In this document: positions 4,380 through 48,083 of the stretch, piece after piece
Numbering within the stretch: the first letter of the stretch is position 1
Layout: each line of letters opens with the position of its first letter
Notes under the pieces: generated by a model
The model's database searches: none
Told to the model about the DNA's origin: nothing
Seen by the model: the letters and a program-made list of their open reading frames with translations, nothing else
Program-made: the position numbers and the translations under genes
Virus record (IMG/VR): IMGVR_UViG_3300049725_000037
Location: 1 to 58,664 of that record
DNA length: 58,664 nucleotides
Strand: one strand, 5' to 3'
Source: a virus
Lineage: Duplodnaviria; Caudoviricetes

Positions 4380-5870
4380 CTACCCGGTGTAGGCGACCGG
4401 ATTGACGCCGGGATACTTTCCAGCGCCCGCGATGAGCAGGTAGTTCTTCGGGAACGCCCGCGCGTCAACGAAGGGCTCCATGCCGCGGATACCCTGGATT
4501 CCGTAGCCAACCACGCGCTGCTCGCCCTTGTCGTTCGCGAAGCCGCCCGTCTTGACCAGGCGCTCAACCTCCGTCGAACCGACAGCGTGGAACAACGCCT
4601 CGGCACCCATGTGCAGTGCCCAGTTGAGGACAACGCCATTGATGGTGCAGGGAACGATGATCGCGCCGCGCGGATGCTGGTTGCTGAACCGGCTCCCAGC
4701 GGCCACGTTGTCTGCCGCGGCGTTGCCGGCGAAGTTGCCGTTGGTGCCACGGACCACGCCCGTCATCTGGTAGCCGGCCGCGGCGACACAGGTGGCGGTG
4801 TACGAGAAGATCTCGTACTTCTGATCGGTGGTGTGGTTGTAGATCATCGCGTAGTACGTCGTCGAGTCAGCCGGAAGGCTCTCGCCGTCGTAGATCTTCC
4901 ATGAGTAGCCACGGAAGTACCCGAAGTAGTCGCCGGCCCCGGAAACGATCGCAGCCGGGAGATGACCGCCGCCAACGATGGTCGTCACGCATCCGCTCGT
5001 GAGCGCGGTGCCGAGGTACGCCATTGGGTACAGCGGGCTGCCCTGGCGGCCGTCCGCATCGTCAGAGATGACATTGTGCACGAACATCACGTTGTTATCC
5101 CAGAGGGGATACTTGCCGGTGAACAACTCGTTGCCCGCGCCGCGCAGGCCGGCGTATTGCAGCGACGTCAGGTAGGCGGAGTTCGAGCGCAGCCGGCGCA
5201 TGAACTGGTCGGGAGCGAAGTAGATGTACTTCGGGATGTCGACGCCGTTGACGTCGGTTTCCATGCCCATGGGGGTCGCGCCCATGCCGATCAGCATGCC
5301 CTTGGTCGCCTCGATCTCCGACGGCGTGAGCGTATCGGTCGAGAGTATTGCCGCCTCGGTCGTCCGGCCTCCGATCCGATATTGGTTGGTGCCCGGATAG
5401 GTGAGCCGGGCGGCCTCGCGCAGCTTGATCTGGAAGTCGTCATCCTGACGGCGGCTCCACCAATCACCGAGCGCATCGCTTGACCACTGGTCGATGTTCC
5501 GACCGGCCGGGCCGATCTTCGCAAACGACTGGGTCCATGAGACGGCATGCGCGATGTAGTCCACGTTGACCGAGAACGAGCCGTTGAGCACCTTCTCCGT
5601 CGCCGTTTCGAGGGTGTTCTCACCCAGGGTTCCCTTGCCGCGGAGCTGGGCAACCGTGATGAACTTGACCATCTGGGCGGCGCCAACCGCGAGGTCCTGT
5701 TTCTTGACGATGGGCATGGCGGAGCTTTCCCCGCCAACGAAATGCTTGAAGATGAACCGCTCCCGGGTCGACTTGATGACTTTCTTCGCCCAGATGATCC
5801 CCTTCAGGTCACTGTTTGCACTGACAACATCCGAATACAGCGTGGCATTCGGAAGAATTGGGTCTGACAT
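4380..5870 (-). CDS. Major capsid protein, N4-gp56/DUF4043-like
   Basis: 496 aa; 'PIVKKQDL', 'LRGKGTLGENTLE', 'LGDWWSRRQDD' and 'NELFTGKYPLWDNNVMF' match the N4-like capsid pattern; follows a scaffold-like gene. Confidence 0.8.
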   Translation of the reverse strand: MSDPILPNATLYSDVVSANSDLKGIIWAKKVIKSTRERFIFKHFVGGESSAMPIVKKQDLAVGAAQMVKFITVAQLRGKGTLGENTLETATEKVLNGSFSVNVDYIAHAVSWTQSFAKIGPAGRNIDQWSSDALGDWWSRRQDDDFQIKLREAARLTYPGTNQYRIGGRTTEAAILSTDTLTPSEIEATKGMLIGMGATPMGMETDVNGVDIPKYIYFAPDQFMRRLRSNSAYLTSLQYAGLRGAGNELFTGKYPLWDNNVMFVHNVISDDADGRQGSPLYPMAYLGTALTSGCVTTIVGGGHLPAAIVSGAGDYFGYFRGYSWKIYDGESLPADSTTYYAMIYNHTTDQKYEIFSYTATCVAAAGYQMTGVVRGTNGNFAGNAAADNVAAGSRFSNQHPRGAIIVPCTINGVVLNWALHMGAEALFHAVGSTEVERLVKTGGFANDKGEQRVVGYGIQGIRGMEPFVDARAFPKNYLLIAGAGKYPGVNPVAYTG

Positions 5871-13815: not shown

Positions 13816-14100
13816 TTATCCTTGTTTGTTCCTGATACCTGACTTGTCGATCATGTGCTGGAAACGGGTTCTGTTCATCGCTAGCAGTTTCTCTGGGGAG
13901 AGTTCCATGTAGACGGCGCGGGAACGGCGCAGCGCGTTCGCCTCTTCATCCGGCGTATTCCCGTTGAGGATCAACGCCTCGATCTTGCGCATTTCCTCCG
14001 CGTGCCGTTCGCAAACAGCCTTCCATGCCGGCTGGTCGGCGAGCTCCCCGCATTTGGAAAGCAGCGTGTCGGCTTCCTGCCCTGTGAGTTCCTGCTTCAT
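13816..14100 (-). CDS. Small helical protein downstream of portal
   Basis: 94 aa; ATGA overlap with the portal stop. Confidence 0.7.
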   Translation of the reverse strand: MKQELTGQEADTLLSKCGELADQPAWKAVCERHAEEMRKIEALILNGNTPDEEANALRRSRAVYMELSPEKLLAMNRTRFQHMIDKSGIRNKQG

Positions 14101-16118
14101 GGCGCGGCGGTGACCGGCCCGGCGGCTGGCGGAGGTTCACCTGGCACGGGAGGGACCCCTGGTGCCGGCGGCTGACCGGGCGCACCCATGGGATCGGGCG
14201 GCAGCTCTGGTAATTGTGGTAGGGGGAGCAGTTCGTCGGTGTTCTTGAACCCCAACTCCTCAAGCAATTCGACACAGAGAGCACGGCGCATTGGCATCAG
14301 CTGCGGGGGGGTCTCCATGTATTTATCCTGGACCTCAAGGGCCTGTTTGATCGCCGCGGCCCGTTCCGCGCTGTATTGCTGGCTCAGGACGAGTTCGACG
14401 TTGATCTCGACGTTCCGGATCTGGTCCGCCGTCATCTTGGCGATGAGCCGGAGGTTGTTCGCCGTGAACTGGTATTCCTCCTCCGACCCGGGCTCGACGG
14501 TCGCCATCGCCAGCTGGACGAGCTTCAAAAGATGCTCCTCCATGGCTGTGATCACCCGGCGGATCCATCGGCGGGTCAGCTTGGAAGACTCGTGCAAGGT
14601 CGCCCGGACGCCTTCCGCCGTGTTGCTATCCGGCTGCTGCGAGTAATCCCCCTGGCCGATGTTCGAGATTCCGAGCCAGAGCTGTACGAGATACAGGAGG
14701 TATTCGAGCAGCTTTTGCGTGCGCTCATCCGTGTCCGGGATCTTCGCGTACTGGATCAGGTCGTTGATCGTCTTGCCGGCCCGCGTGCGATAGAACATCG
14801 TTGGGTCAAACTCGATGTTCTCCGGCTCCTCCTCGACGGCCTGCGGGTCGCCGCCCTTCGGGGGATTGGCAACCTGCAGCTGCCGATAAAACTGCCCGTT
14901 CCATAACCGGTCAATCGACTGCTGAATGTCGTGAACCAGCTCGGGAATCGAATAGCCCCACCACCGCTGCTTGCCCTTCGCGACTGCGATCGTGGTGTAC
15001 GGCCGGTTGCCGTCGTAGCAGACGTTCGATTGGAACTCGTACCAGACCAGCCGCCTCTTCTCCTCTTCGTAATAGACAACGATCTCCTGCGGTTCACCCC
15101 ACCCAAGAATATCGCGACGGAGCCAGCACTCGATCACCTTGCGCTTCGGGTTCTTGTTGTCGAAGCTGAGCGCCTCGTTCGACATTTCCTTGCGGTCGCC
15201 CTCTGTCTTCGCCGCCGCGTCCCCCTGGCTGTATTCCGCGGCCAAGGCCTCCCATTTGAGCCATTCACGGTCGAGCCATGTCTTCTTGAACCAGAAGAAA
15301 TCCCGGTCCTGAAGCTCCATGACGCAATCCGCCTCGTCAAACGAGCGGGCATCGCTCGGCGCCAGGATGCGGTCATAGTCGATCAACTCGGAGCGTGGGC
15401 CGCGGTAGATGACATCGCGACGGCGCAGGCCGTCTTTCGTCGGCCGGAACTCATGCTTCGCCGGATCCACCACAAAGGTCTTGTCGCGGTCCAGGTGCAG
15501 GCGGGTCGGGAAACTTCCGTCGGGCCGCGGTTCGCCGGCGGGATCCTGTATCTCAGTCAGGGCATCCTCGTTTTCGATGATCGGCTTGCCTGAGATCATC
15601 ACCGGTTCATTCGTCCCCTTGTCGTGCAAAATCTGGCTTTTCCGATCCACCCAGACCTTCGTGTCGTTCGCCATCACCGACTTGAGTATGCAGGCCCGCT
15701 GAACGAAAATCGCCATTTGCGCGTCTTGCAGGTTGCGGCGGACCTTTCCCTTCACGTCCAGCTTCCAGTTGTAGTAGGCGTTGTATTGGGTCGCCAGCTC
15801 CACGGTTGCGGCGCCGACCGGTTCAAAGTGGAAATAGGGGGACTCAGCCGTCGTCTCGTCCTCTGTCTTGCTGACGAAATACTGCACCACCATCGGGATG
15901 ATGGGCAGGAAGACATTCGACAGATTGAAGATCGACTTGGCCGTCGCCTCCCGGTCCTTGATGTTGTTCTCGACCGGCTCGGATTCCTTCCATGCCCGGC
16001 GGTCCCGCAGGATCCGCTCATTGTTGTCCTGGACGAGCGAAGTCTTTCGCTGCTCCAGGTAGGTCAGAAGTTCATTCTCCTGGTCCTGCGTCATTACCAA
16101 ATTGGAGAACATTGGCAT
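14097..16118 (-). CDS. Portal protein
   Basis: 673 aa; 'PYTTIAV...WWGYSIPELVHDIQQSIDRLWN', 'LGISNIGQG', 'SNTAEGV' and a Pro-rich tail match podovirus-type portals. Confidence 0.85.
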   Translation of the reverse strand: MPMFSNLVMTQDQENELLTYLEQRKTSLVQDNNERILRDRRAWKESEPVENNIKDREATAKSIFNLSNVFLPIIPMVVQYFVSKTEDETTAESPYFHFEPVGAATVELATQYNAYYNWKLDVKGKVRRNLQDAQMAIFVQRACILKSVMANDTKVWVDRKSQILHDKGTNEPVMISGKPIIENEDALTEIQDPAGEPRPDGSFPTRLHLDRDKTFVVDPAKHEFRPTKDGLRRRDVIYRGPRSELIDYDRILAPSDARSFDEADCVMELQDRDFFWFKKTWLDREWLKWEALAAEYSQGDAAAKTEGDRKEMSNEALSFDNKNPKRKVIECWLRRDILGWGEPQEIVVYYEEEKRRLVWYEFQSNVCYDGNRPYTTIAVAKGKQRWWGYSIPELVHDIQQSIDRLWNGQFYRQLQVANPPKGGDPQAVEEEPENIEFDPTMFYRTRAGKTINDLIQYAKIPDTDERTQKLLEYLLYLVQLWLGISNIGQGDYSQQPDSNTAEGVRATLHESSKLTRRWIRRVITAMEEHLLKLVQLAMATVEPGSEEEYQFTANNLRLIAKMTADQIRNVEINVELVLSQQYSAERAAAIKQALEVQDKYMETPPQLMPMRRALCVELLEELGFKNTDELLPLPQLPELPPDPMGAPGQPPAPGVPPVPGEPPPAAGPVTAAP

Positions 16119-20032: not shown

Positions 20033-21295
20033 TTAGAATATCTTGATCCCGAATTTCTCTGCCTTCTCGATCTCCTCCTGCGCCTGGTCGAAGGACTCGG
20101 TCTTGACCTCGATGTAATAGCCGCGGACCTCCTTCGCGATCTTGGTCACCATGTCGATCGCGGCCTGCATCGTGTTTCCAAACCCCACGACGGCGCCGAT
20201 CTCAGGGAGCCCGACGGCTTGCGGGATGGCGTAGTAGCGGCCGGCGATCCTGGTCGGGTTGCGCAGCTTGATGAACTTCCGGTACTCCTCCGGGAAGTCG
20301 ACGGGCTGCCAGTTCTTGTCGGCCCATGCGGAATGGATCAACGCCTCGGCGCCGTACTTGGCGACCGGCTCGGGGTCAACGCAGATGCCGTGCGCTCCCT
20401 GCCAGATGATCTCAGAGATGTTCTTGTAGAACTCCTGGTAGAGCTCATTCGGAGGACTGCCGGCCCGGGCGCAGAAGTCGATCATGTACGGCACCTGATC
20501 TTTGCCGATCCGGACCTCCGTTGAGTAGAACCCGCGGTAACCGTAGCGCCGCATCACAGGCGAGATAACCCGGTCGAAGCGCGTGACCGGCTCCGGGATC
20601 TTGTCGTAGTCGGCGAAGATGCCGACATAGCCCACATCCTTGATCTCGACGCCTGTGAGGGTCTTTGTCGGGAACTGGCCGTCAATGCAGTAGCAGTCGA
20701 CGCCGACCTCGAACCGATCCGGCAGGTCATCCTCGACAACGAAGTCGATCACGTTTTTGAACGCGCCCAGGTCATGCTCCATGTCGTCCAGCACCGGCTC
20801 GACCATCTTGTAGTCGATCGCCTGGAACGTCTCCCGGATGCCGCGGAAGTAGGAGATCTTCACCCAGACGTTCTTCTTAGACTTCAGGTAGCCGCGCAGG
20901 TTGTCCATGCCATGCACAACCTCGTAGTGGCCGACCGGCAGCCCGAGCTTGGTGAACAGCTTCTTTGATCCGGGCCGGTCGAGTTCAAGCTGCTCGCCCA
21001 TGCGCGACCCCCAGACGTATTTCCCCTGTGATTCGAGCCGGGTCTGCAACTCGCCGAAATAGACGTCCGGGAAAATCCAGATGTCCGCCTTGTCGTAGAC
21101 GTCGCCAAACGGATCGTTGATCACTTCGATCCCGTCAATGCCCTTGCCGACCCATGAGATATTGGGCTTCGGGAAGCCGCTGTAGGCCGGCGCCCAATAG
21201 TAGACCTTGCCGAAGTCTCGGCCAAGGCGCGCGGCCAGATCACAGAACAAGCCGTTGTCCACCACGATAGCTGTCTTTGATTTCAGGTCGATCAT
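20033..21295 (-). CDS. ATP-grasp ligase, PurD (GAR synthetase)-like
   Basis: 420 aa; WGS..GEQLELDR..SKKLFTKLGLPV..Y and YRGFYSTEVRI...MIDFCARAGSP parallel the PurD ATP-grasp motifs. Confidence 0.75.
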   Translation of the reverse strand: MIDLKSKTAIVVDNGLFCDLAARLGRDFGKVYYWAPAYSGFPKPNISWVGKGIDGIEVINDPFGDVYDKADIWIFPDVYFGELQTRLESQGKYVWGSRMGEQLELDRPGSKKLFTKLGLPVGHYEVVHGMDNLRGYLKSKKNVWVKISYFRGIRETFQAIDYKMVEPVLDDMEHDLGAFKNVIDFVVEDDLPDRFEVGVDCYCIDGQFPTKTLTGVEIKDVGYVGIFADYDKIPEPVTRFDRVISPVMRRYGYRGFYSTEVRIGKDQVPYMIDFCARAGSPPNELYQEFYKNISEIIWQGAHGICVDPEPVAKYGAEALIHSAWADKNWQPVDFPEEYRKFIKLRNPTRIAGRYYAIPQAVGLPEIGAVVGFGNTMQAAIDMVTKIAKEVRGYYIEVKTESFDQAQEEIEKAEKFGIKIF

Positions 21296-24200
21296 TCGAG
21301 TGCGTTGTAGATGTTTCTCCCGCCCTTGCCCTTGCAGAAGATGCGCCGCAGGAACTCATCGCGGGTCTCGCTGGCGTCCTTGAGGGACTTCTCGGCGAAC
21401 TCCTTTTCAAACTGCTCGGGTGACTCAAAGCCGCCGTCCTTGACGGGGTCGAGGGTCATGGGAGTTTCCGGCACGGAAGGGGCGGCAGTGGCATCGGCTG
21501 CTGGAGTTTCAGCCAGGGAATCCGCGGGCTGCGGCGCGAGGGATAGCGCCTCTTGCGGTTCAAGTTCCTCTGGCGTTTCAACTCGCAGCGTCCGCAGCAT
21601 CGCCCGCCCGGCCTGCTCGTTCGTCAGGGTGTCCATCCCAAAAATGTTCTTCAGCCACCGCTTGACGGCCTCGACGATTCGCTGCCAGAGGGAGGGATTC
21701 TTTTCCGCGTTCTGCGCTGCCCACTCTTCAACGATCCGGTTTCGATAGTCCTCACCCGACTCGCCTTCCTGTTGCGCGTACCTTGATTTCAGGTCGGTGA
21801 TCTCGCTGGCCGGGATCTCCCGCAGCGCGAAAGCGGTAATGGCGGCACGTCCCCGCCGGCTGTCGAGAGTCGCATGCGCCCACTCGTGGTTGGCGATCTC
21901 GGCGACCGTGGCGGCATCGCCAGCGTAGGCGGCGTTGATCGTGAGCTTGCCGTCAACGTACTGGCCGCGCACGCCACGCCCGTTCTCCGTCGTGGTCGGC
22001 TCGTTGACCACTTCGATCTTGGGCGCTCGCGGGTTGGCCTTTGCGAAGGCGTCAACGGCGGTCTGCACGTCGGCGACGGGCATGGACGGCGAGTAGGTGG
22101 ATTCGAGGGAGGACAGACGCACCGGCATCGTGACGCTCAGGAACTTCTTTCCGTCGGTGATGGTGACAGATGAACTCGTATCCTTCACGATCAGTCGAAC
22201 CTTCTCCAGACCCATTGCGCGGGCCTGCGCGAGAGCGTCGGCCAAGAACTCAGGATTGACCGCTACCCTTCCGCCAGTAGCGACCCCCGCCTTGGTTTCA
22301 GTCACACCTTCCGAGTGATACCCGCCGAAATCCGGAGACTCGCTTGAGAACCCAATTCCGCCACCCTCAATAGGATGAATCTTAATGATGTGCCACCATC
22401 TCGACTTCTCAGACGTGACCAGCGAAGCCATGCGGGCCAGCCGGTACGTCTCGCCTGTGTCAACGGTGGTGTCGATTGTGACCTCGCCGGGATCGCCGAC
22501 CTTAAGTTGCCCACCTTCAACCTTCACGTAGTTGGGGACAACCTGCCGCCAGTTGGGATACTGGATTGGGTAGAACGTGCGTTTCTTTGTCTTTGGGTCT
22601 TCGCTCCACGTACCAGCGATCTTTCCGTTCTTGTCCAGCACTTGGCCTTTGCTGTTCAGCTTTTCGCCATCCCCACCGACTGCGACCGTCAGCCTCCGTC
22701 CATCTGTTGCGATGGTGAATTTCCCATCGTTCACAACGCGATTAAGAACATAGAGGGTTTCATCATTCGACTGAGCCAACCCCACCGCCTTCGTGATCTC
22801 CGCTGGCGATGGCTTCTCATTCAGCGCCGGAATCGGGCTGTTCTTTGGGACCGTGCGGGTCGTCTCCGATTCCGAGAATGGCGGCGGAACCGTCACACGG
22901 TCCCTGCCCTTGCCAAACGAATACTGCTTTCCAAAGCGGTCCCCGATGGTGTCCTGAAAGCGTTGCAGCGCCTCCTGCGTGTGCGGGATTCGGAATGTCC
23001 CGTCGCCCGGAACTTCGATTGTGACGTGCTCGCCGTGCTGGCGGGTGATGCCTTGGCGGATCGCTTCCTCGATACGCGAAGCCGTGCGCCACGAGGTTGC
23101 GCCAATCTCAATCGGGTGCCCCGGTTCAAGGCTCTCCATCGTCGAAGCCTCAGTGTCGTGAAGATCCGTGTATTTCTTCACCAACGGTTCGAGCGCGTCA
23201 AGTTTGGCCTCATCAGCGGCTTTCCGTCTCTCGTCTCCATCTTTGCCGTAGGGCAAATCATTCGTGGCGGAACGGTGCTGGTCCTCGATGTCAGCCAGCT
23301 TCTTCAAATCGACTTTGGCTTGCTCGGCATGAACCTGTGTCTCCGGCGCGTCCTTCTTCGCTGCCTCGACCGCATCGGCCAGAAATTCCTTCTGCGCCTT
23401 GATCTGCTTTCGATCTGACAGCTTGGCGATGTTGCGTTCCTTGGCCGCCGTCGGCTCGACCTTCGGCCCCTGCGGCGTCTCCGTGACCGTGGCACCGGGG
23501 GGCGGCTCGGGCGTGGCGGCTTTCGCAGCGGGTGCCTCGGCGGGCGGGGCGGGCCTGAGTCTCTCAAGAGCTTTCTCAGTGTTGACGCCTCCCCATTTCT
23601 CTTCCTGTTCAGCAGCGGCAGCAACCTTGCGCAGATTCGCAATTCGCTCTTGGGTCGCCTTCGCTAATTTCTGTGACTCCTCCGGCCAGTATTCTTTCCC
23701 GTTGGTTAAAGTCTTCCGCTCATTAGTGAACCGATTAAGGTCCGCTTCAAGTCGCTTCAACTGATCCGCAATGGGATCTGTGCTGCCGGTCTTCTGCTTG
23801 AGAATCCTACTGACGCTCTGGAAATCTTCGGCCTCCTTTTTCTTTGCCGCACGTTCGGCATTCTCAGTGTCGCGCTTCGCCTGCGCTTCCTTGAAGTCGG
23901 ATTCACGCTTTGCGATGGCTTGCGCCTCTTCGTCAGCTTTAGCCTTCCATCCTTCGTTCACCTTGGAAACGACATCATCCGTCGCCTTTGCGAGCATGGA
24001 ATCGAACGCCTTCGACTTCTGCGCGATGGTTCCTGTTTTCTCGTCAGACATCCACGCCTGCCATGTCTCATCGTCGCGGACGTGTTCGTTTAGGGTATTC
24101 TGAACGAGCTGGCGCAGTTTGTCGGGTTCTTCCTTATAGAGCGACTCATACTCATCCAGACGTTCCTTAATCGCGCCCAACGTGTGCTGAACGTCGAACT

Positions 24201-27200
24201 TGGGCGCGGGTGCCTCGGAGGGCTTCTCCGGCGCAGCGGGCGCTTCCGCCTTGGGTGCAGGGGCCGGAGTCGAACCGGCTGCGTCGGCCTTATGAGGGCC
24301 AACTGCTGCCGTAGCTCCCTGCTGTGAAAGCTCCTCAGAAGTTGCTGGATAATATCCAAATTCTTCAATCGCATCTCCCGCCCATCGAACATCACTCGCC
24401 TTCACCTTGAAGGCATGAACAGGAATGTCCTCCGATGGATTATCAGCCATTCCGTGTTGTTTAGAATACGCCCGCGAAAAAGAGACCCAATCTCCGCTGT
24501 TGAGCGTAGCCTTAGGGGCGGCACGATACACCGTAACGATGGCATCCGGCTTCCCCCTGATTCGCTTCAATGCTGCAACACTTTCCTTGTAACCAACACT
24601 TCCTGGTTCGCCTGTGTATAGATCAGGACGGTCATAAATATCACGAGGGGCAAGGTCAGTCGAAAGCAAGTCGTGCGCCGGAGGGCCTTCGCTGTTTGGC
24701 CGATGTTGGCCTTGATAACTCGGTTCCTGCGCCGGCTGAACAGCCTCCGCCTCAGCGGCCTTCCCGCCCTTCGCCGCGATCAGATACTCCGCATAATCCA
24801 TCGCGGTCTTACTGATCTGAGATTCGTCCCGATATGAGCCATTCGGTTTTTGTAGCCTTCGCAGCCCCGCCTTACTTTGCACAACAGTCGCTCCTGCCGC
24901 CACATCACTTTCAACAAGCTCCCTGCGGGTATGAGGCATCCCCTCTGCGGTGACTGACTGCGCGAGCGCCATCTGTGCCCGCTTGGCCTGCATCGGGTTC
25001 ATGCCTGCCGTGAACTCATCCTTTGCTGGCTCTATCTTTGGAGTCGGCTCCGCAGTGTCACCAATGCGCTTTGTGCCGTTGGCGATACGCTCCCTCTCCG
25101 CCTTGACGGCCTCCATCTTCGCCGCAATCCTCCCCTCCACGTCTGCCATCGCAGCCTGATTTCCCCAGATGATCTGCTGCCGCTGGGTGGGCTTAACCTC
25201 GACGCCGGCCGCCGCCGCACGGGAAAACAGTTCAGTCGCTTCAGGTGGTTCCGCCTTTGCGACCGGGGCGACCGAAGGCTTCACAGCCTCACGCGCCACC
25301 TTTTCCGCCTGTTCACCCTTTGGGGCGAGCGCGTTGTATTGCGCCTTCACCTCGTTCCACTTCGCCTGAAGCTCAGCCATGCGCTTCTCATCGCCCTTCA
25401 GCTTCGCGTTGCCCATGCTCGCCTCGATCACCTTCATCTGCGTGGCGAGCTTGCGGGCCTTCGGCGTCTTCTGCCATGGCGTCACTTCTCCCGCAGGTAC
25501 TCCGGCAGCGGCTTGTGCGGGTGCGACGCCTTGAACGACTGGCGCGCCTGGTTGAACGCCGCCGCCAGGCTTTGCTTCGGCGAGTGGCCGGCTGCCCTCA
25601 TCTCCTTCGCGTTGTGGCCGATCGATTGTCTGCTGTATCCCTTCTTGAGTGGCATGGATTGGTTCTCCGGTTGTGACTGGTTCGCCCTTCGGAAGCGTGG
25701 CAAGATCGTATCCCTCCTTTTGAAGCGTGTCTTCGTCCACCGTGCGCATCCCCCGTGGTGAACCGGGATCGGGCACCTGGTAGTAGCGGTGCCCACCCTG
25801 CTCGTACATGAACAGCGCTTCCTTCGGGACAGGCTTGCCGGCCGGCGCGGCTTCCGCTGGCTTTGCGGGCTCGACGGCTGCCGCAGGTTCCGGCTCGACT
25901 TCGATCTCCTTCAAGAGTTCCGGGTCAATCAGGTCGGACCCGGAGGGCTCGGCGTCCGGTGCGGGTTTCGGTGCCGGCCCCTTGGGTGCGGCGAGCTCTC
26001 CAGCGGCCGGCGGTTCCTCGCCGGGCGGAGTCTTCTTCGTGCTTGCGAGTCCGATGCCAGCCTTCTCCGCGGCTTCCGGCTGGCGCTTGATCCAGTCAAC
26101 AAGGTCTCCCACCGTTCGCCCATTGAATCCCTGCTCACGCGCCTTCGCCATCGCCTCCGGTCCTGGGACCCACAAACCGGTTTCAATCGCCTTGATGTCG
26201 CTTGGCAGCCGGGCAACCGACAACCCTGTGCGAAGAAGCAACTGTATAAGCGCCATGTCTCGCCCTGTCTCCATAACGCCCTGGGTGATCGGACGGTCGG
26301 GATCGTAAGTGAGCTTAGCCCCAATGTTCTGGCCGTACTGCATTCCCCCGCCTGCCGCAAAATCAACCCCCACATGCGCCGGCAACTTCGCTGCCAGCTT
26401 CACACCCGGACCGCGAAGCCATCGCATCGCCCCGGCAATCCCCTCTCGATCGGTGGCAACCGCCAAGCCCGACAGGAATATCCGCCCGGAAGGCTCCGCA
26501 GACAGAAGCCGTATCCCCCGGCTAAACGGAACCGCCATCCCCGTTCCGATCGCGGTGCCTGCGATTTCTGCAACCCCGCGCGCGGTGTTGAATTCCTTCT
26601 GTGTGATCTTGCCGGCTAGAAGCTGTGGGCGGAGTTTGTCTGTCGCTTCTTGGCGCATTGAATTGCCAATGACCCCGGCGCCGGAGACGCCTGACGCAAC
26701 TGTAGCGAGCGTATTCGCTGTGCCTGTTGTAAGTCCCGCGGCAAGGCCTATTCCCTGCGTCACCATCGCCGCCGCCCAGATAGGAACCAACCCGCCGGCA
26801 AACGGGGCAATCCTGCCGACAATGATGTTCTGGTCCGCTTTGGCGACCACCTGCTCCGGCAAATCGAGGTTCCAACTCTTGGCCTCCGTTTGAAGGTCTC
26901 CAAAAAACTTCGCGGTCTTGTCCTGCAAATAGTCGGTGGCCCCCTGGTATTGGGTGAGATTCTGCTTCGCCAGTTCCCCTGCCGGTCCGGGCAAAAGCGA
27001 GGCCGTCAACTTGGACGTGAACCCCGGCCCCGAAGCCCGGATCAGATTTCGGGCGAGCCATTCCTTTATGTTCAAGGAAGCCTCTTCCTCTCCTTGGAAT
27101 GCACGCAGACCGGCCTGCTTGGTTTCCTCCCAGACAGTAGGATCGCGGACCTGATCCCAGAGCCCGCCCTCCTTGAGCATCGGCTCCTTGTCCTTCATCG

Positions 27201-28641
27201 CCTGCCGCAGGACATCGCGCTCATCGCGGAGCGGCTTCTTCATCTTCTCAGTCGCCCCGGGATGGGAGATCAGCCCGTCGACTTCCTTCAGCCGGTTCTG
27301 GGCGAGGCTGTAGGTACTCAGCAGCTTCGCCCCGTTCACAGCGTCCTCCCCGCCGAACTGGGAGATCAGTTTTTCAATCGGCTCGCCCCCGACCGTCTTG
27401 TTCCCGGCATCCCGGAGATTTGCCAGCCGCGCCATCGCCGCATGAAAAACCGGAGCGTTGTGAATGTCCGCATGGTCCCTCGCCTGGTCGATGAAATCCT
27501 TGTTCGACACGTCATCAACCTTCGATTGCGCCAAAGCCTTTGCCCCCTCCTGCAAGGAATCCCATGCGCCGATCCCGACATTCGCCAACTGTGTTGCCTT
27601 TATGGCGGCGGCCTCGGTCGGCGTGACTAGGCCGAGATTTGGAAATCCTTCCTCGTGGCTGGCTTCTCTTTCGTCGACCGGAGGATCCACGGCAGCCCCG
27701 CGCTTCGGCAAATGCTGCATGATCGTCTTCGGGTCGATCAGACGCTGCCCGCGCGCCCGCCGGTAGTCGTTCACCTGCTTGATCCGTCCGGCAACCCAGT
27801 CATCGGGACCGGTCGGGACGGGATCAGGATAGTCGATCAACGGTTCCCCGGCCGCCTGCCTCTGCTGGTTCACGGCGCCCGTTGCCGCGGCAATCGCCTT
27901 GTCGTTGATCGTGAGCGTCTGTTCGGCAAGCCCCCCATAGCGGATCTTCTCATCCTCGAGCGCCTTCTTCACCCTGTCGTGTTCATCGACAATGCGCTTG
28001 CGACGGTCCTGCGCATCCTTGATCGCAGCCGCCGCCTTCTCTGCTTCGGATTTCTCTCCGGGCAGCCGGCCGGCGGCAGCAACGGCATCCGGGGTCGGGT
28101 CGCCGCGCTTGCGGCTGGTGAACATCGCCCCGAAAACTCCAGTCGTATCCTTCGCCGCCTCTTCATCGGAAGGAATCGCGGCCCCCACCTTCGCAAGATC
28201 ATCCAGCGACGGACGGCCGGCAGCCTTCGCCGCAAGATCCGCTTTGGCTCTCGCTGCTTCCCGTGCGGTCCCTGTCTTGCCCTTGATCAGGTCGGGAAGC
28301 AAATCGGTATTCTGCTGGTCGAACTCGTCGAGCATCGCCTTCCGCGCCTGAAGATCCGCCTCCAGCAAAGTCTTCCGGGTTTTGGATTGCTTCATCTGCC
28401 GGGGCAAAGCGTGGTTGGCGAGAAGATCACCAAGGTCGTCGACCTCGCTCCGCTGCGGCGCGAGCCGTTGCCCCAGTGATTGCCCCTGAGAAAACGCCGT
28501 CGTCTTCGCCTGCCGTTGCAGTGCCCTGCGGCGGCGCTGCTCCGCCGTGTCATCGAACGCGAATGGATCAGCCGCGAGGCTTCCGGGTGCATTCGCTACC
28601 GCCGTCGCGGAATCCGCATAAGGATCGAAGTCGTCGGGCAT
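21292..28641 (-). CDS. Giant polyvalent probable ejection protein (2449 aa): hydrophobic region, ART-like module, beta-clamp-like module, HExxH peptidase
   Basis: Gly/Ala hydrophobic helices; VTVYRA...GDWVSFSRAYSKQHG...EFGYYP; IATDGRRL...YPNWRQVVP...VNPEFLADAL...VTMPVRL; ANHEWAH. Confidence 0.85.
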   Translation of the reverse strand: MPDDFDPYADSATAVANAPGSLAADPFAFDDTAEQRRRRALQRQAKTTAFSQGQSLGQRLAPQRSEVDDLGDLLANHALPRQMKQSKTRKTLLEADLQARKAMLDEFDQQNTDLLPDLIKGKTGTAREAARAKADLAAKAAGRPSLDDLAKVGAAIPSDEEAAKDTTGVFGAMFTSRKRGDPTPDAVAAAGRLPGEKSEAEKAAAAIKDAQDRRKRIVDEHDRVKKALEDEKIRYGGLAEQTLTINDKAIAAATGAVNQQRQAAGEPLIDYPDPVPTGPDDWVAGRIKQVNDYRRARGQRLIDPKTIMQHLPKRGAAVDPPVDEREASHEEGFPNLGLVTPTEAAAIKATQLANVGIGAWDSLQEGAKALAQSKVDDVSNKDFIDQARDHADIHNAPVFHAAMARLANLRDAGNKTVGGEPIEKLISQFGGEDAVNGAKLLSTYSLAQNRLKEVDGLISHPGATEKMKKPLRDERDVLRQAMKDKEPMLKEGGLWDQVRDPTVWEETKQAGLRAFQGEEEASLNIKEWLARNLIRASGPGFTSKLTASLLPGPAGELAKQNLTQYQGATDYLQDKTAKFFGDLQTEAKSWNLDLPEQVVAKADQNIIVGRIAPFAGGLVPIWAAAMVTQGIGLAAGLTTGTANTLATVASGVSGAGVIGNSMRQEATDKLRPQLLAGKITQKEFNTARGVAEIAGTAIGTGMAVPFSRGIRLLSAEPSGRIFLSGLAVATDREGIAGAMRWLRGPGVKLAAKLPAHVGVDFAAGGGMQYGQNIGAKLTYDPDRPITQGVMETGRDMALIQLLLRTGLSVARLPSDIKAIETGLWVPGPEAMAKAREQGFNGRTVGDLVDWIKRQPEAAEKAGIGLASTKKTPPGEEPPAAGELAAPKGPAPKPAPDAEPSGSDLIDPELLKEIEVEPEPAAAVEPAKPAEAAPAGKPVPKEALFMYEQGGHRYYQVPDPGSPRGMRTVDEDTLQKEGYDLATLPKGEPVTTGEPIHATQEGIQQTIDRPQREGDEGSRPLAEAKPGGGVQPGAPVVQGVAPAQAAAGVPAGEVTPWQKTPKARKLATQMKVIEASMGNAKLKGDEKRMAELQAKWNEVKAQYNALAPKGEQAEKVAREAVKPSVAPVAKAEPPEATELFSRAAAAGVEVKPTQRQQIIWGNQAAMADVEGRIAAKMEAVKAERERIANGTKRIGDTAEPTPKIEPAKDEFTAGMNPMQAKRAQMALAQSVTAEGMPHTRRELVESDVAAGATVVQSKAGLRRLQKPNGSYRDESQISKTAMDYAEYLIAAKGGKAAEAEAVQPAQEPSYQGQHRPNSEGPPAHDLLSTDLAPRDIYDRPDLYTGEPGSVGYKESVAALKRIRGKPDAIVTVYRAAPKATLNSGDWVSFSRAYSKQHGMADNPSEDIPVHAFKVKASDVRWAGDAIEEFGYYPATSEELSQQGATAAVGPHKADAAGSTPAPAPKAEAPAAPEKPSEAPAPKFDVQHTLGAIKERLDEYESLYKEEPDKLRQLVQNTLNEHVRDDETWQAWMSDEKTGTIAQKSKAFDSMLAKATDDVVSKVNEGWKAKADEEAQAIAKRESDFKEAQAKRDTENAERAAKKKEAEDFQSVSRILKQKTGSTDPIADQLKRLEADLNRFTNERKTLTNGKEYWPEESQKLAKATQERIANLRKVAAAAEQEEKWGGVNTEKALERLRPAPPAEAPAAKAATPEPPPGATVTETPQGPKVEPTAAKERNIAKLSDRKQIKAQKEFLADAVEAAKKDAPETQVHAEQAKVDLKKLADIEDQHRSATNDLPYGKDGDERRKAADEAKLDALEPLVKKYTDLHDTEASTMESLEPGHPIEIGATSWRTASRIEEAIRQGITRQHGEHVTIEVPGDGTFRIPHTQEALQRFQDTIGDRFGKQYSFGKGRDRVTVPPPFSESETTRTVPKNSPIPALNEKPSPAEITKAVGLAQSNDETLYVLNRVVNDGKFTIATDGRRLTVAVGGDGEKLNSKGQVLDKNGKIAGTWSEDPKTKKRTFYPIQYPNWRQVVPNYVKVEGGQLKVGDPGEVTIDTTVDTGETYRLARMASLVTSEKSRWWHIIKIHPIEGGGIGFSSESPDFGGYHSEGVTETKAGVATGGRVAVNPEFLADALAQARAMGLEKVRLIVKDTSSSVTITDGKKFLSVTMPVRLSSLESTYSPSMPVADVQTAVDAFAKANPRAPKIEVVNEPTTTENGRGVRGQYVDGKLTINAAYAGDAATVAEIANHEWAHATLDSRRGRAAITAFALREIPASEITDLKSRYAQQEGESGEDYRNRIVEEWAAQNAEKNPSLWQRIVEAVKRWLKNIFGMDTLTNEQAGRAMLRTLRVETPEELEPQEALSLAPQPADSLAETPAADATAAPSVPETPMTLDPVKDGGFESPEQFEKEFAEKSLKDASETRDEFLRRIFCKGKGGRNIYNALE
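24252..24323 (-). tRNA. tRNA-like cloverleaf with CAT anticodon, nested on the sense strand of the 2449-aa CDS
   Basis: AGCAGGG-A-GCT ACGGC AGC-AGT-TGGCC CTCATAA GGCCG-ACGCA-GCCGG TTCGACT CCGGC-CCCTGCA-C-CCA; good acceptor, anticodon and T arms, reduced D arm. Confidence 0.6.
25482..25655 (-). CDS. Overprinted 57-aa basic protein (MPLKKG... family) in an alternative frame of the giant gene
   Basis: MPLKKGYSRQSIGHNAKEMRAAGHSPKQSLAAAFNQAR...; start context CCAATCC-ATG like other genes here. Confidence 0.65.
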   Translation of the reverse strand: MPLKKGYSRQSIGHNAKEMRAAGHSPKQSLAAAFNQARQSFKASHPHKPLPEYLREK

Positions 28642-29675: not shown

Positions 29676-31430
29676 TCACCCCATCTGCCAGCCTCCGGCC
29701 GCCCGGGCCTTCTGAATGTCGATCTTCCGGCGGTGTTCCTTCAACTCGGTCGCCGACGCCTGCACGTTGTAGAAGCCGATCGCCGAGAAAAGAACCCCGT
29801 CATCGTGCGTGCCCGACATCGCCTCCGGCCGGCTGTTCCGGCTGATGATGAATGTCTTCATCTGCCCCAGAATCCATGGGTGGGGTATGTCGATTGTCGG
29901 CTCCTGCGGATTCCACTCGTTCACCATCTGGGCGAGGTGGTCGATGATCGTCTTGCGCGTCGTCTCGTTCGTCAGCCAGCCGAGCTGCTTGTCTGTGGTG
30001 CCGGCGGTCTTGTTGATGATCCTCCGGGAGTAGACCGAAATGCCGATCTCGTTCAGCTTCTTCACCATCGTCAGGCCGCAGTTGTTGACCTCCGGGAAAA
30101 CGATGCACCGACCGTAGTAGATGCTGAGTGCGGCCATGATGTTCGCCGCGACGTACTGCTCGACCCTCGACCAGTGGAACGCGACGACGCGCGGGCATAA
30201 CCAGAAGCCGCGGGTGTCCCGGTAACCTGCCCGGATGATACCGAGCGCATGGTAATCCGGGTCGGCCTGCGGCTTGTCGCTCACCTGATCCTCGCCGGTC
30301 ATCGTGTCGCCGATTCCGATATACCGGCATCCGATCTTGGGGTCTTCGTAGATGTCAATGCTGCCAGCCGGGTCTGGCGTGAACGACGCGCGCATGTCGT
30401 CGAGCAGCGTCAGTTCCCCGCGCTTCGGCGTGATCCGATCCGCCAGCTTCTCCATCTCCGTGATCTTCGTCACGTTGAAGCGGAATCGGGACGATCGGAA
30501 GAAGCAGCTGATGTCGTCCGACGGATATTCGCTTCGGAACTTTTCGACGTCCCCCTCGCACTTGACCTTGATCATCCGCCGGCGCCACGCCAGTTGCTCC
30601 AGGCTGAGTTTGAACTTCAGCTGCTCCTCGCGCTCGTCGTCGGTCATCGACCGCCGGAACTCCTCCGTCTCATCGGGATCGGAGAACGCCTTGATGTGAT
30701 CCGGCTCGCAGAACCACGGGATAAAGATTTTCGTCCATCCATTATCCTTGTTCATCCAGTATTTGAAGAAGGTTCCGAACGGTCCGTTGGGAGTCGAGTC
30801 CATGACTCCAAGCGTTGTCTCGCCCTCCGTCGATAGGGAGTTCAGAAATGCGAGCGCCGGGTCTTTCTCGCCGCGGGGGAAGAACGCCACCTCCGTCGTG
30901 TTCGCGACCTGCACGGTCCCGGAACGGCCGGCGTTCTTCGACATTGCCGTCTCCTTCCCGTAGTGGCTCCCGTTGCCAAGGGTGATGTCATCGTCGAGGT
31001 CGGCCTCGATCGGAAGTCCCCACTTGAAATGGTCATTCCTTGCCAGCCACTGAAAGATGCCAAAGACAGTGTCGGACGTGCCGGCGATGTCCCCCATGAC
31101 CGCGCCGTTGAGCCCCGGAAACTTTTGCAGGTGATGATAGATCAGCGCCTGGACACCGGTTGACCCGCCGTCCTGCCTCGGCTTCAGCAACATGATCAAG
31201 CAAGGCTTGTGCTGCTTCCGGCATTCCCGGTAGGCCCGGAACAACTCAATCTGGCAGACGCGCGGGCGAATAACCGGACCGCGAATCACCATCCCTTCCT
31301 TGGTTTTGATCTCGGCGCACTGACGGAACCAAAACTCGGGGTCCGCCCGGATCAGGGCGTCGAGGGTGGATGCGCCAGCGACGGCTTCCATGTGAGAATC
31401 CTCCCTGTGTTCGTCTCGACTGTCACGCAC
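29676..31430 (-). CDS. terL: Terminase large subunit
   Basis: LKPRQDGGST (Walker A region), TTEVAFF (Walker B), DSTPNG coupling motif, nuclease GIGD...PEVNN...HDDGV; true start may be 31391. Confidence 0.9.
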   Translation of the reverse strand: MRDSRDEHREDSHMEAVAGASTLDALIRADPEFWFRQCAEIKTKEGMVIRGPVIRPRVCQIELFRAYRECRKQHKPCLIMLLKPRQDGGSTGVQALIYHHLQKFPGLNGAVMGDIAGTSDTVFGIFQWLARNDHFKWGLPIEADLDDDITLGNGSHYGKETAMSKNAGRSGTVQVANTTEVAFFPRGEKDPALAFLNSLSTEGETTLGVMDSTPNGPFGTFFKYWMNKDNGWTKIFIPWFCEPDHIKAFSDPDETEEFRRSMTDDEREEQLKFKLSLEQLAWRRRMIKVKCEGDVEKFRSEYPSDDISCFFRSSRFRFNVTKITEMEKLADRITPKRGELTLLDDMRASFTPDPAGSIDIYEDPKIGCRYIGIGDTMTGEDQVSDKPQADPDYHALGIIRAGYRDTRGFWLCPRVVAFHWSRVEQYVAANIMAALSIYYGRCIVFPEVNNCGLTMVKKLNEIGISVYSRRIINKTAGTTDKQLGWLTNETTRKTIIDHLAQMVNEWNPQEPTIDIPHPWILGQMKTFIISRNSRPEAMSGTHDDGVLFSAIGFYNVQASATELKEHRRKIDIQKARAAGGWQMG

Positions 31431-44779: not shown

Positions 44780-45088
44780 ATGAGCACAAACGACCCCGCG
44801 ATCACCCGCGACAACCAGCCTCCAGCACCGTATGGCGTGATGGATATTACTGCGGATGAACTCACCCGCCTTCGCGCCAACCTTGCCGAGATTTCCCGCC
44901 ACGCCGGAATCGAGGTCTTTGAGGCGAATGAGGAGGTGTTGAAGCTGACCACCGAACTTGCCGCAGCCAAAGCTGCCCACCTAGAATCCGAGAAACAACT
45001 GCGCTGTTGGCAAGATAAGTACGCCTCCGTCACAACCGAGCGGGACGCGCTGCTTGCCGAGCGGGACGCGCTGCTTGCCGAGCGGTGA
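44780..45088 (+). CDS. Coiled-coil hypothetical protein ending in ERDALLA x2
   Basis: ATG at 44780; 21-bp tandem repeat near the 3' end. Confidence 0.6.
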   Translation: MSTNDPAITRDNQPPAPYGVMDITADELTRLRANLAEISRHAGIEVFEANEEVLKLTTELAAAKAAHLESEKQLRCWQDKYASVTTERDALLAERDALLAER

Positions 45089-45133
45089 CGCATGAGAGAA
45101 AATAGCCTTTTTCACTTTCTCACCCTAAATCCA

Positions 45134-45469
45134 ATGAAATCAAAAGTTCAAATTCACTACCGCCAGGGCGATGTGCTGATTGAGCGCGTTCCCTCTCTGC
45201 CCGCAAATCGAACGAAGCTCGCGCGTGAAAACGGCCGCGTGATCCTCGCTCATGGCGAGGTCACCGGCCACGCCCATGCGATCTCCGCTGCCAACGCCGA
45301 TCTCTATTCGGCGGTCGATTCCGGAGATGTGACCTTCCTCGAAATCCGGGACGCCATGGTCGAACTCGAGCACGATGAGCATGCCACGGTGACGCTCCCG
45401 CCAGGCAATTACGTCGTGCGACGTCAGCGCGAATACACCCCGGAGGAAATTCGCCGTGTCGCAGACTAA
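45134..45469 (+). CDS. Conserved His-motif protein (RQGDV...GEVTGHAH...HDEH...RRQREY), copy 1
   Basis: Motifs recalled as the usual partner of DUF6745 genes. Confidence 0.85.
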
Positions 45470-46502
45470 TTACAGTCCGGAAGTCCAGGCATTGCTCGAT
45501 CGCCACGCGACGGCTTGCGAGCTGAAGATGCCGGTTGATCGCGAGCGCATCGCCGATCGCTTGACGGCCTGTCTGGCGGGCGTTTCGCGAGAAAAGTTGC
45601 AGGTCCGCTTCCTCGACCGAGCCGATGAAATCAGCTCGGTCGTCATAAAGGCCAGGGCTGCCTGGGATGCCAGGGCTGCCAGGGATGCCAGGGATGCCTG
45701 GGCTGCCAGGGCTGCCTGGGATGCCAGGGCTGCCAGGGATGCCAGGGCTGCCTGGGATGCCAGGGCTGCCAGGGCTGCCAGGGCTGCCAGGGCTGCCTGG
45801 GATGCCAGGGCTGCCTGGGCTGCCTGGGATGCCTGGGATGCCTGGGATGCCAGGGCTGCCTGGGATGCCTGGGATGCCTGGACTGCCAGTTGGGATTGCA
45901 GTTGGTTGCCCGTAATTTCGATCGGTGCGCTAGAGCGCGCCGACAGAAAGCTGCACAGCATTTGGCTGCCTCTGCTGGAGGCATTCGAGGCTGGCGCCTG
46001 GCTATTCTGGATTACGGCGGACGAACTGGTGGTCGCCGAGCGTCCCTCTGCGGTACGCACCGACGATCGCCGGCGTCTACATCATGCGTCCGAGCCGGCG
46101 TTTTCCTGGCTCAGCGATATCCGCGAGTTCTATATTCACGGCGTCCATGTTCCGAGCTACATCATCGAGCAGCCGGAAACGATCACCATTACCGAGATCG
46201 AATCGGAACGAAATGCCGAGGTGCGACGGGTGATGATCGAGCGTTACGGCCGGGCGCGGTTCTTGACCGAGTCCGGGGCCGCTCAGATCCATGCCGATGA
46301 TTTCGGGATTCTCTACAGGAAGGAGGTCACTGGAGATGAGCCAATCGTGATGGTGAAGGTGATAAACGCCACGCCGGACCCGGCTGGCACGTTCAAAGAC
46401 TACTTCCTGCGCGTTCCTCCGACGATGCGGACGGCCCGCGAGGCGGTCGCCTGGACGTTCGAGAAGGAAGCCGACGCTTATGCGCCGGCAGTCCAAACAT
46501 GA
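45456..46502 (+). CDS. DUF6745-like protein with A(R/W)(A/D) repeats, copy 1
   Basis: [13 protein letters not shown]...[41 protein letters not shown]. Confidence 0.8.
45651..45884 (+). repeat. 9-bp coding minisatellite GCC(A/T)GGG(C/A)T, 25 units plus 1 degenerate, copy 1
   Basis: Read directly; encodes ARA/ARD/AWA/AWD. Confidence 0.95.
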
Positions 46503-46554
46503 TCAGGGAAACCGATCTTTTCGGCGCCGGCCGGCACGGCGCATCCGGCAAGCC

Positions 46555-46686
46555 ATGAAACCTACTTTCCGCTGCTCGGAACTCGGTCAAGTCCTCTGGT
46601 GCCCCGGCTCGAAGGCGCTTGGGGCCAAGGGTCACAACCGAGCGGGACGCGCTGCTTGCCGAGCGGTGACGCATGAGAGAAAATAG
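46555..46686 (+). pseudogene. Truncated 5' copy of the Cas4-like nuclease gene at the duplication junction
   Basis: MKPTFRCSELGQVLWCPGSKALGAK identical to the start of 48136..49284, then diverges at 46631. Confidence 0.85.
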
Positions 46687-46714
46687 CCTTTTTCACTTTC
46701 TCACCCTAAATCCA

Positions 46715-47050
46715 ATGAAATCAAAAGTTCAAATTCACTACCGCCAGGGCGATGTGCTGATTGAGCGCGTTCCCTCTCTGCCCGCAAATCGAACGAAGCT
46801 CGCGCGTGAAAACGGCCGCGTGATCCTCGCTCATGGCGAGGTCACCGGCCACGCCCATGCGATCTCCGCTGCCAACGCCGATCTCTATTCGGCGGTCGAT
46901 TCCGGAGATGTGACCTTCCTCGAAATCCGGGACGCCATGGTCGAACTCGAGCACGATGAGCATGCCACGGTGACGCTCCCGCCAGGCAATTACGTCGTGC
47001 GACGTCAGCGCGAATACACCCCGGAGGAAATTCGCCGTGTCGCAGACTAA
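46715..47050 (+). CDS. Conserved His-motif protein, copy 2
   Basis: Translation identical to 45134..45469. Confidence 0.8.
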
Positions 47051-48083
47051 TTACAGTCCGGAAGTCCAGGCATTGCTCGATCGCCACGCGACGGCTTGCG
47101 AGCTGAAGATGCCGGTTGATCGCGAGCGCATCGCCGATCGCTTGACGGCCTGTCTGGCGGGCGTTTCGCGAGAAAAGTTGCAGGTCCGCTTCCTCGACCG
47201 AGCCGATGAAATCAGCTCGGTCGTCATAAAGGCCAGGGCTGCCTGGGATGCCAGGGCTGCCAGGGATGCCAGGGATGCCTGGGCTGCCAGGGCTGCCTGG
47301 GATGCCAGGGCTGCCAGGGATGCCAGGGCTGCCTGGGATGCCAGGGCTGCCAGGGCTGCCAGGGCTGCCAGGGCTGCCTGGGATGCCAGGGCTGCCTGGG
47401 CTGCCTGGGATGCCTGGGATGCCTGGGATGCCAGGGCTGCCTGGGATGCCTGGGATGCCTGGACTGCCAGTTGGGATTGCAGTTGGTTGCCCGTAATTTC
47501 GATCGGTGCGCTAGAGCGCGCCGACAGAAAGCTGCACAGCATTTGGCTGCCTCTGCTGGAGGCATTCGAGGCTGGCGCCTGGCTATTCTGGATTACGGCG
47601 GACGAACTGGTGGTCGCCGAGCGTCCCTCTGCGGTACGCACCGACGATCGCCGGCGTCTACATCATGCGTCCGAGCCGGCGTTTTCCTGGCTCAGCGATA
47701 TCCGCGAGTTCTATATTCACGGCGTCCATGTTCCGAGCTACATCATCGAGCAGCCGGAAACGATCACCATTACCGAGATCGAATCGGAACGAAATGCCGA
47801 GGTGCGACGGGTGATGATCGAGCGTTACGGCCGGGCGCGGTTCTTGACCGAGTCCGGGGCCGCTCAGATCCATGCCGATGATTTCGGGATTCTCTACAGG
47901 AAGGAGGTCACTGGAGATGAGCCAATCGTGATGGTGAAGGTGATAAACGCCACGCCGGACCCGGCTGGCACGTTCAAAGACTACTTCCTGCGCGTTCCTC
48001 CGACGATGCGGACGGCCCGCGAGGCGGTCGCCTGGACGTTCGAGAAGGAAGCCGACGCTTATGCGCCGGCAGTCCAAACATGA
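47037..48083 (+). CDS. DUF6745-like protein, copy 2
   Basis: Translation identical to 45456..46502. Confidence 0.8.
47232..47465 (+). repeat. 9-bp coding minisatellite, copy 2
   Basis: Same unit order as 45651-45884. Confidence 0.95.

Follow-up and report, generated by a model that had tools for sequence, protein, structure and literature searches.

A phrog_2423-type small gene lies intact in the +1 frame of a 2449-codon gene of a tailed phage

Results

Location of the nested open reading frame

The window, that is the whole stretch of DNA analysed here, comprises the 58,664 bases of IMG/VR virus record IMGVR_UViG_3300049725_000037 (Duplodnaviria; Caudoviricetes), with a guanine-plus-cytosine (GC) content of approximately 61% and a CheckV completeness estimate of 59. 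The subject of this report is a small open reading frame (ORF) which lies entirely within a giant ORF of 2449 codons and which matches the phage protein family phrog_2423. The small ORF starts with an ATG at 25655..25653 and ends with a TGA at 25484..25482 on the minus strand; it is encoded on the same strand as the giant ORF (28641..21292), one base downstream of its phase (+1). The two thus form a nested overlapping pair, with a complete ORF lying within another on a shared strand and in a shifted frame. An initial annotation of the window, made from the sequence alone, had reported a 57 amino acid (aa) peptide at this position; its translation was found to be identical, letter for letter, and on the minus strand, and the linker which that annotation had quoted for the main frame over the nested ORF was likewise recovered (...HATQEGIQQTIDRPQREGDEGSRP...). 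The coordinates of the features discussed below are collected in Table 1.

Table 1. Features of the nested locus and of the giant ORF which contains it (positions within the window)
Feature	Coordinates	Strand	Description
Nested small gene	25482..25655	minus	57 codons plus TGA; +1 frame of the giant ORF; phrog_2423 match
Giant ORF, putative polyvalent-protein type	21292..28641	minus	2449 codons; between terminase and portal genes
Main-frame linker	25476..25709	minus	giant residues ~978-1055; G/A/P/Q/E-rich; spans the nested gene
Putative translation initiation region of the nested gene	25599..25682	minus	least structured RNA stretch of the giant gene (predicted)
Mini-domain 'F(L/M)YEQGG...RG(S/M)RTVD'	25672..25863	minus	aa ~927-990; ends ~5 codons before the nested ATG
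ParB C-terminal-like domain	24337..24744	minus	aa 1300-1435; phrog_2579, E 7.1e-25

Homology of the nested peptide to phrog_2423

The nested peptide matched the phrog_2423 profile with an E-value of 6.3e-10 (39.9 bits), residues 1-43 aligning with profile positions 1-43 of 52, so that the homology begins at the nested ORF's own methionine. As a control, all 74 alternative-frame stop-free stretches of at least 55 codons over the giant gene were compared with the PHROG profiles (E ≤ 0.01) and the only one to match was that of the nested ORF.

Relatives were collected by a pattern scan of IMG/VR, which gave 599 stretches, and by tblastn at least 527 of these encode a relative; of the relatives the best 80 were retained, and GenBank phages added two further records. 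All 82 fetched loci have an ATG at the start of the match, in register with residue 1, and in 80 of them the ORF is 43-72 aa long, a range which includes the 57 aa of the nested copy. The description in the initial annotation of a widespread, stand-alone phage protein was therefore borne out, homologues of the 57-aa peptide having been found both with the phrog_2423 profile and, by tblastn, in the hundreds. The first eight residues of the nested peptide are the N-terminus of the family, which is invariant in all 53 aligned sequences; this octapeptide was one of the retrieval patterns of the IMG/VR scan and its invariance is therefore partly built in. The invariant columns N15, Q28, A31 and A37 are also retained in the nested copy.

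Searches of Pfam and NCBIfam with the nested peptide gave no significant match, and word-based protein searches at near and longer lengths gave none either, which is weak evidence as tblastn returned hundreds of relatives. An Atlas search of the small protein produced unnamed clusters only, plus a 10% DUF6496 lead. AlphaFold2, run with the family alignment, predicted a two-helix hairpin (helices 9-21 and 26-44; mean predicted local distance difference test score 90.1), a prediction driven by that alignment. No match to the small protein was found in the PDB by sequence or by fold, and the BFVD matches of probability 1.00 were to uncharacterised proteins only, such as A1Z025 of Burkholderia phage BcepF1 and B5BTY3 of Ralstonia phage RSB1.

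Genomic arrangement of the relatives

Nesting in a long ORF was seen in none of the 82 relatives. One locus with a 324-codon open alternative frame (L072) was considered as a second nested case and rejected, its layout being capsid gene, small gene and next gene. Of 67 distinct loci, 39 have a phrog_283 major head protein as the upstream neighbour of the relative, and in MW202867.1 a 60-aa hypothetical protein (UOF82831.1) directly follows the P22-type coat gene. The nested copy does not have this stand-alone placement; the major head gene of the window (phrog_334, at 4380..5870) lies approximately 20 kb away.

Because these genes tend to lie beside a head gene and most members end in a basic, Lys-rich tail, our guess is that phrog_2423 comprises head-associated, possibly nucleic-acid-binding small proteins. 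The nested ORF had been proposed to encode a basic core protein: the product is indeed basic by its sequence, while 'core' is unproven, the nested copy ending in FKASHPHKPLPEYLREK where the family consensus ends in ...KAGKPSKAPK...K.

The module was also observed at the start of longer proteins. In two relatives (L002, 6001-6582, and L056, 5907-6521) a protein of 193 aa or 204 aa begins with it; in MW202675.1 such a protein is surrounded by genes whose annotations include internal virion protein D and acetyltransferase; and in BFVD the module occurs within proteins of 532-554 aa named Nudix hydrolase and prohead protease. A correspondence between the mini-domain immediately upstream of the nested gene (Table 1) and a family of approximately 110 aa which follows the small gene in relatives was rejected (hhalign probability 0.8%).

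Relative age of the two coding layers

The fit of each frame to the codon usage of the phage was scored with a table trained on 13 other genes of the window. Over the 174 nucleotides (nt) concerned the small frame was ahead of the main frame by 14.7 nats of log-likelihood. The preferred frame turned to +1 over the nested stretch and was the main frame again directly after the nested stop, where the alternative frames scored 20-47 nats below it. The GC content at third codon positions (GC3) over the nested stretch was approximately 0.9 in the small frame versus approximately 0.5 in the main frame, the value for the main frame overall being 0.69. In a representative search, the main-frame linker was covered by this phage's own copies only, and among 160 stored proteins, approximately 147 of which are homologous to the giant protein, the octapeptide leaves its main-frame 'shadow' in those of this phage only. 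The suggestion that the small gene is the older coding layer is thus upheld by stand-alone relatives numbering in the hundreds, against none for the linker, with which local codon usage and GC3 agree; the small frame looks older than the giant-frame linker at this position, the codon evidence being moderate and not decisive.

Relatives of the junction were sought in several collections. There were none among GenBank phages by blastn, none in IMG/VR with giant residues 548-980, none with the portal gene, and none among metagenome and genome contigs with giant residues 900-1200; a search of IMG/VR with giant residues 1055-1500 gave four loci, which share single modules only, and no DNA was found for the collinear homologue P0009 described below. 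The near-identical copies from other sequencing runs differ too little for a frame-specific ratio of nonsynonymous to synonymous substitution rates.

The codon phase shared by the two frames

The third codon position of the small frame is the first codon position of the giant frame. There are no T-ending codons in the small ORF, versus 6.3 expected from the codon usage of the phage, and none of 72 distinct relatives is free of them (the minimum is three). When the small protein is recoded synonymously, the giant frame remains open in only 10.9% of cases. Viewed from the giant frame, 21 of 2391 windows of 58 codons have no T at codon position 1, and 20 of these start at codons 978-997; the linker is the only long run of this kind in the giant ORF. 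These counts fit the proposition that the synonymous sites of the small gene have been tuned to keep stop codons, as well as aromatic, Cys and Ser(TCN) residues, out of the giant frame. The main-frame translation over the nested stretch (...GEPIHATQEGIQQTIDRPQREGDEGSRPLAEAKPGGGVQPGAPVVQGVAPAQAAAGVPAGEV...) is G/A/P/Q/E-rich.

The start region of the nested gene

A GGAG motif is located at 25668..25665, 9 nt before the nested ATG. The predicted minimum free energy (MFE) of the 63 nt centred on this ATG was -4.7 kcal/mol, compared with a mean of -18.0 (standard deviation 5.1, n = 560) for internal ATGs of predicted genes, of which 0.2% are as open, and a mean of -10.7 (n = 46) for predicted true starts. 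Eight of the 12 least structured of 2456 giant-gene windows lie at nt 2990-3011 of that gene, at the nested start, and 1.5% of GC-matched windows are as open. The nested start is also more open than 98% of the starts of 63 stand-alone relatives (mean -10.7), and as all 25 relatives' starts in contigs with a GC content of at least 0.57 are more structured (MFE -16.9 to -10.3), its openness is not simply inherited.

The 'typical start context' ascribed to the nested ORF in the initial annotation holds only in part: GGAG is present 9 nt upstream, but the motif is rare in this phage, and a Shine-Dalgarno (SD)-type motif occurs by chance at five of 65 out-of-frame ATGs in the giant gene, including one at 25477..25475. 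Scoring of SD-type starts was abandoned since it does not discriminate real from internal ATGs, as was a start-context position matrix with which 124 of 622 internal ATGs scored as high as the nested ATG.

Most of the 51 predicted genes of the window have no SD motif; their leaders are C/A-rich and G-poor, often with ...CC before the ATG, and G makes up 22% of upstream positions at gene starts versus 34% at internal ATGs, a pattern which hints that the host initiates translation independently of SD motifs. A scan for promoters and terminators gave no match and no promoter-like site upstream of the nested gene; any expression of the nested gene would therefore use the giant gene's own mRNA. In an RNA run (X20) two 151-nt contigs were found, at 25653-25803 and 25880-26030, and no contig covered the small ORF; the two possibly derive from DNA and are not evidence either way.

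Continuity of the giant gene

The main frame is free of stop codons throughout 28641..21292, so that, as had been described, the giant frame runs straight across an intact small gene. Independent assemblies agree with the sequence at the junction. A Logan contig of depth 60 (run X11) is identical over 25055-27000 with no indels, a second (X14) agrees over 25123-25585, and a third (X13) agrees over 25518-27000 with a single substitution, which is outside the nested ORF; no indel is listed at the junction in any Logan run, and every word sampled from the stretch is present in seven further runs. The 2449-aa protein is recorded unchanged in NCBI, Logan and ENA assemblies, and a 2446-aa variant whose junction is identical is also known from another assembly. 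Two shorter proteins (P0005, 217 aa, and P0007, 146 aa) were considered as diverged relatives and set aside as noisy versions of the same phage, and were not used for evolutionary comparison; their indels are read as errors because their source contig has many frame breaks elsewhere.

The stretch 24800-26300 was found near-identical in 19 runs from 15 studies of peat, permafrost, lake water and bioreactor metagenomes. Such a spread is unusually wide for one genotype and could reflect a cosmopolitan phage, a phage of a common contaminant, or carry-over between samples. Beside the identical main contig, run X11 also has a 143-nt contig (depth 59) with eight listed substitutions within 50 nt (25026-25075) and 12 in all, which suggests that a variant with a diverged version of this part of the giant gene (aa ~1189-1205) occurs alongside.

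Modules and setting of the giant gene

The giant gene is flanked on the same strand by a terminase-like gene (29676..31430) and a portal gene (14097..16118). The ParB C-terminal-like domain is the sole named module detected in the giant protein and the only part of it matched in GenBank phages (172 records). An HEWAH motif is visible near the C-terminus and matched no model, and the giant protein had no match in Pfam (including the LPD and metallopeptidase models), NCBIfam or PDB sequence searches.

A distant homologue of 3434 aa (P0009) aligns with giant residues 122-990 and then again with 1698-2175, and a second protein, of 2593 aa (P0022), likewise holds modules from both sides of the junction in a single polypeptide; the mini-domain at aa ~927-990 matches internal parts of four other giant proteins (P0047, P0058, P0074 and P0091). 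The middle of P0009, between the shared parts, is different and carries two H-x-T/S-type motifs and an HExxH motif, which shows that the middle modules of this protein family are exchanged in a cassette-like manner. The alignment with P0009 stops at aa 990, and the nested gene is situated where the conserved N-terminal 990 residues meet the variable middle modules.

Since the collinear homologues are single chains and the junction modules are internal to other giant proteins, the giant gene was probably already continuous, and is probably a single gene rather than a read-through fusion of two. The proposal that it 'grew by reading through' an intervening gene is therefore not favoured, P0009 and P0022 being single chains which span both sides. 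With a continuous giant protein as the shared state and the small gene at a module boundary, we infer that capture of the small gene at a module-shuffling junction is likelier than a fusion of two genes.

ARAGORN called a tRNA-Met (CAT) inside the giant ORF at 24252-24323 on the minus strand; a search of 23800-25900 against Rfam (E ≤ 1) returned no tRNA and no other family. The IMG gene call P0154, which covers the last 962 aa of the giant protein, begins at approximately 24180, just downstream of the ARAGORN call. Public annotation may thus have truncated the giant gene owing to a probably false tRNA.

Discussion

Interpretation of the nested locus

The presence of an intact phrog_2423 copy in a shifted frame of the giant gene is confirmed. 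The explanation which we favour, by a modest degree of confidence, is that a continuous giant gene encloses an older small gene at a younger stretch which codes for a linker, and that both frames are probably used. The older layer would be a divergent phrog_2423 member, basic and with a predicted two-helix hairpin fold, and its most likely origin would be capture at a module-shuffling junction of a giant gene that was already continuous. The giant frame, that of a multi-module protein of virion (polyvalent-like) type, crosses the small gene one base out of phase and would there encode a hydrophilic, probably disordered linker which joins the conserved N-terminal 990 residues to the variable middle modules, and the third codon positions of the small gene would then have been tuned in a way that kept the giant frame open and polar. 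Both products would be made from a late virion-module mRNA, the giant protein by normal elongation and the small protein by internal initiation at the ATG at 25655, where the gene has its least structured stretch. The openness of the start region and the absence of T from the shared phase make the use of both frames plausible, and from the same two features it is plausible that the giant gene deliberately co-encodes the small protein, as the initial annotation had offered as one option. A stronger version, in which both layers are functional and the arrangement itself was selected, with giant virion or injected proteins gaining linkers by overprinting resident small genes and internal initiation taking place at a purpose-built unstructured site, is put forward more tentatively, as possible and short of probable.

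A number of observations weigh against the use of both frames. No gene caller on record has the nested ORF as a gene, and the one metatranscriptome run (X20) gave only the two short contigs described above. The frame scoring has a clear false positive at nt 3864-3936 of the giant gene, over the ParB-like domain, where +1 is also preferred; a second nested gene at that position was rejected, as the 70-codon +1 stretch is Arg-rich and has no usable start. In control genes an alternative frame was preferred in 139 of 7302 windows. No diverged junction relative was found in viral, metagenome or genome contigs. The GC-rich relatives are already T-poor, with as few as three T-ending codons, so zero could be reached in few steps. 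Other points of this kind are what would be expected if the small gene were a molecular fossil, brought in by illegitimate recombination during module shuffling and now silent, only the giant protein being made; its intactness would then reflect a recent event, or the fact that changes which break the small frame are also unwelcome in the linker frame. The nested copy is the most divergent of the 53 aligned sequences, scoring 66.8 bits against a leave-one-out profile of 52 relatives (next lowest 72.7 and 72.8; median 109.5), which would fit relaxed constraint too; it has non-consensus residues at 10 of the 15 family columns that are nearly invariant, has lost the Lys-rich C-terminal tail, and lies outside the usual place of the family, some 20 kb off the major head gene. 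The giant-frame phase is stop-free over the small gene by chance in 14 of 82 stand-alone relatives; read-through needs no adaptation. Main-frame GC3 over the stretch remains at approximately 0.5, unmoved toward the 0.69 norm, which a recent event fits as well as constraint does. There is no internal promoter, and GGAG is not a typical signal in the genes of this phage. Against a silent fossil, the start codon, the stop and the family-typical length are all intact; the start coincides with the most unstructured spot of a 7.35-kb gene, a property not simply inherited; and stand-alone members such as L039 and L071 show a range of divergence which takes in the nested copy, this copy being level with members such as L039 in identity over residues 9-43. 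We regard the fossil as the main competitor to the use of both frames, though a somewhat doubtful one.

The two remaining alternatives are much weaker. In one of these the giant ORF is not a single gene at all but an upstream gene, the small gene and a downstream gene, the long frame owing its openness across the small gene to an error in the sequence or to a mutation that arose very recently. An out-of-frame ATG at 25477..25475 on the minus strand, 4 nt past the nested stop and with GGGAG 10 nt upstream, could be read as the start of such a downstream gene; it opens a frame of 29 codons only, and in the noisy ENA version P0007 the loss of one C from a CCC run joins it to the giant frame. This ATG may be what is left of a once separate start, or it may be there by chance. 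The IMG gene call, restricted to the last 962 aa, points the same way. Set against this, the main frame has no stop and independent assemblies agree base for base with no indels; seven further runs and the 2449-aa and 2446-aa proteins from other assemblies concur; the contig behind P0005 and P0007 is error-prone; the 962-aa call follows a tRNA call without Rfam support; and collinear homologues are single polypeptides. A split giant gene is accordingly judged improbable. The other alternative, that an accidental alternative-frame ORF resembles a phage family by chance, draws on the GC content of approximately 61%, at which long alternative-frame ORFs are common, as the 74 control stretches illustrate. 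It is effectively refuted by a match at E 6.3e-10 that runs from Met1, an identical octapeptide, four further invariant columns and the single match among those 74 stretches.

Comparison with known systems

Nested genes are known in phages, and the usual account is that a new small gene was born inside an old one. In phage lambda, the small spanin gene Rz1 lies entirely inside the larger Rz, in its +1 frame and with the same orientation, and is translated from an internal start. The locus described here resembles that pair as an embedded, same-strand +1 small gene in a tailed phage and differs from it in that the embedded gene of Rz/Rz1 is a specialised, functionally linked partner, whereas here the embedded gene is the older and more widespread one. 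The polarity is apparently reversed in the present case, with an older, widespread small gene remaining intact inside a younger giant-frame stretch that is used as a linker.

The nearest conceptual parallel may be the spacer of the hepadnavirus polymerase, which, according to the hypothesis presented in PMC8227390, began as a new reading frame within a short surface gene that already existed and, by acting as a linker, gave rise to a multi-domain polymerase. In both instances a linker frame would have been born in an older small gene, and in both the ancestral frame was assigned by sliding-window codon usage (PMC8227390). The hepadnaviruses are 3.2-kb reverse-transcribing animal viruses in which, by the same account, both products are proven and the overlap is conserved across the family, whereas the present overlap belongs to a single lineage of a double-stranded DNA phage known from sequence alone, and its giant gene was probably continuous before the small gene arrived. 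If both layers are truly selected, the locus would be a double-stranded DNA phage counterpart of the hepadnavirus spacer/surface overlap.

Out-of-frame remodelled genes ('ORgenes') have been described in the E. coli pangenome, where the regions derived from an alternative frame (ALT) are reported to be short and disordered (PMC8788219). The likeness is that part of a protein is an alternative-frame reading of another gene family, the linker here being apparently disordered as well (PMC8788219). The ORgenes came from a network search in E. coli and their donor is, as far as that account goes, usually not intact or co-resident, whereas the donor ORF here is complete.

Phage polyvalent proteins, encoded near portal and terminase genes and predicted to be packaged in the head, were described by Iyer et al. 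2017 (PMC5512222). The giant protein resembles them as an apparently multi-module protein with a ParB-type module encoded beside the portal and terminase packaging genes (PMC5512222), and differs in that it matches no Pfam LPD or metallopeptidase model and has one named module only. Nested genes do not form part of the polyvalent-protein description in the text of PMC5512222. With the phrog_2423 proteins themselves (UOF82831.1, A1Z025 and B5BTY3) the nested copy shares the N-terminus, the predicted two-helix fold and the length range; those proteins are stand-alone, usually encoded right after the major head gene and equipped with a Lys-rich tail, whereas the nested copy is distant from that gene and has another tail.

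If both frames are expressed, it follows that genes from nearby or from foreign sources can be taken up into giant modular phage proteins and survive. Such genes would then be missed by standard annotation, as the nested ORF has no gene call on record, and frame-aware homology searches inside giant ORFs could recover hidden genes. The locus is in addition a test case for dual-coding constraints, with its T-free shared codon phase and its unstructured internal start.

A further feature of the window

Elsewhere in the window, on the plus strand, a perfect tandem duplication with a period of 1581 nt was observed at 45057-48218, 45057-45356 being 100% identical to 46638-46937. The two ORFs of the pair (45092-46502 and 46673-48083) are identical and each copy contains a run of 9-nt periodicity (approximately 45543-45986 in the first). 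It may reflect a genuine duplication of a repeat-protein gene, or else an artefact of assembly.

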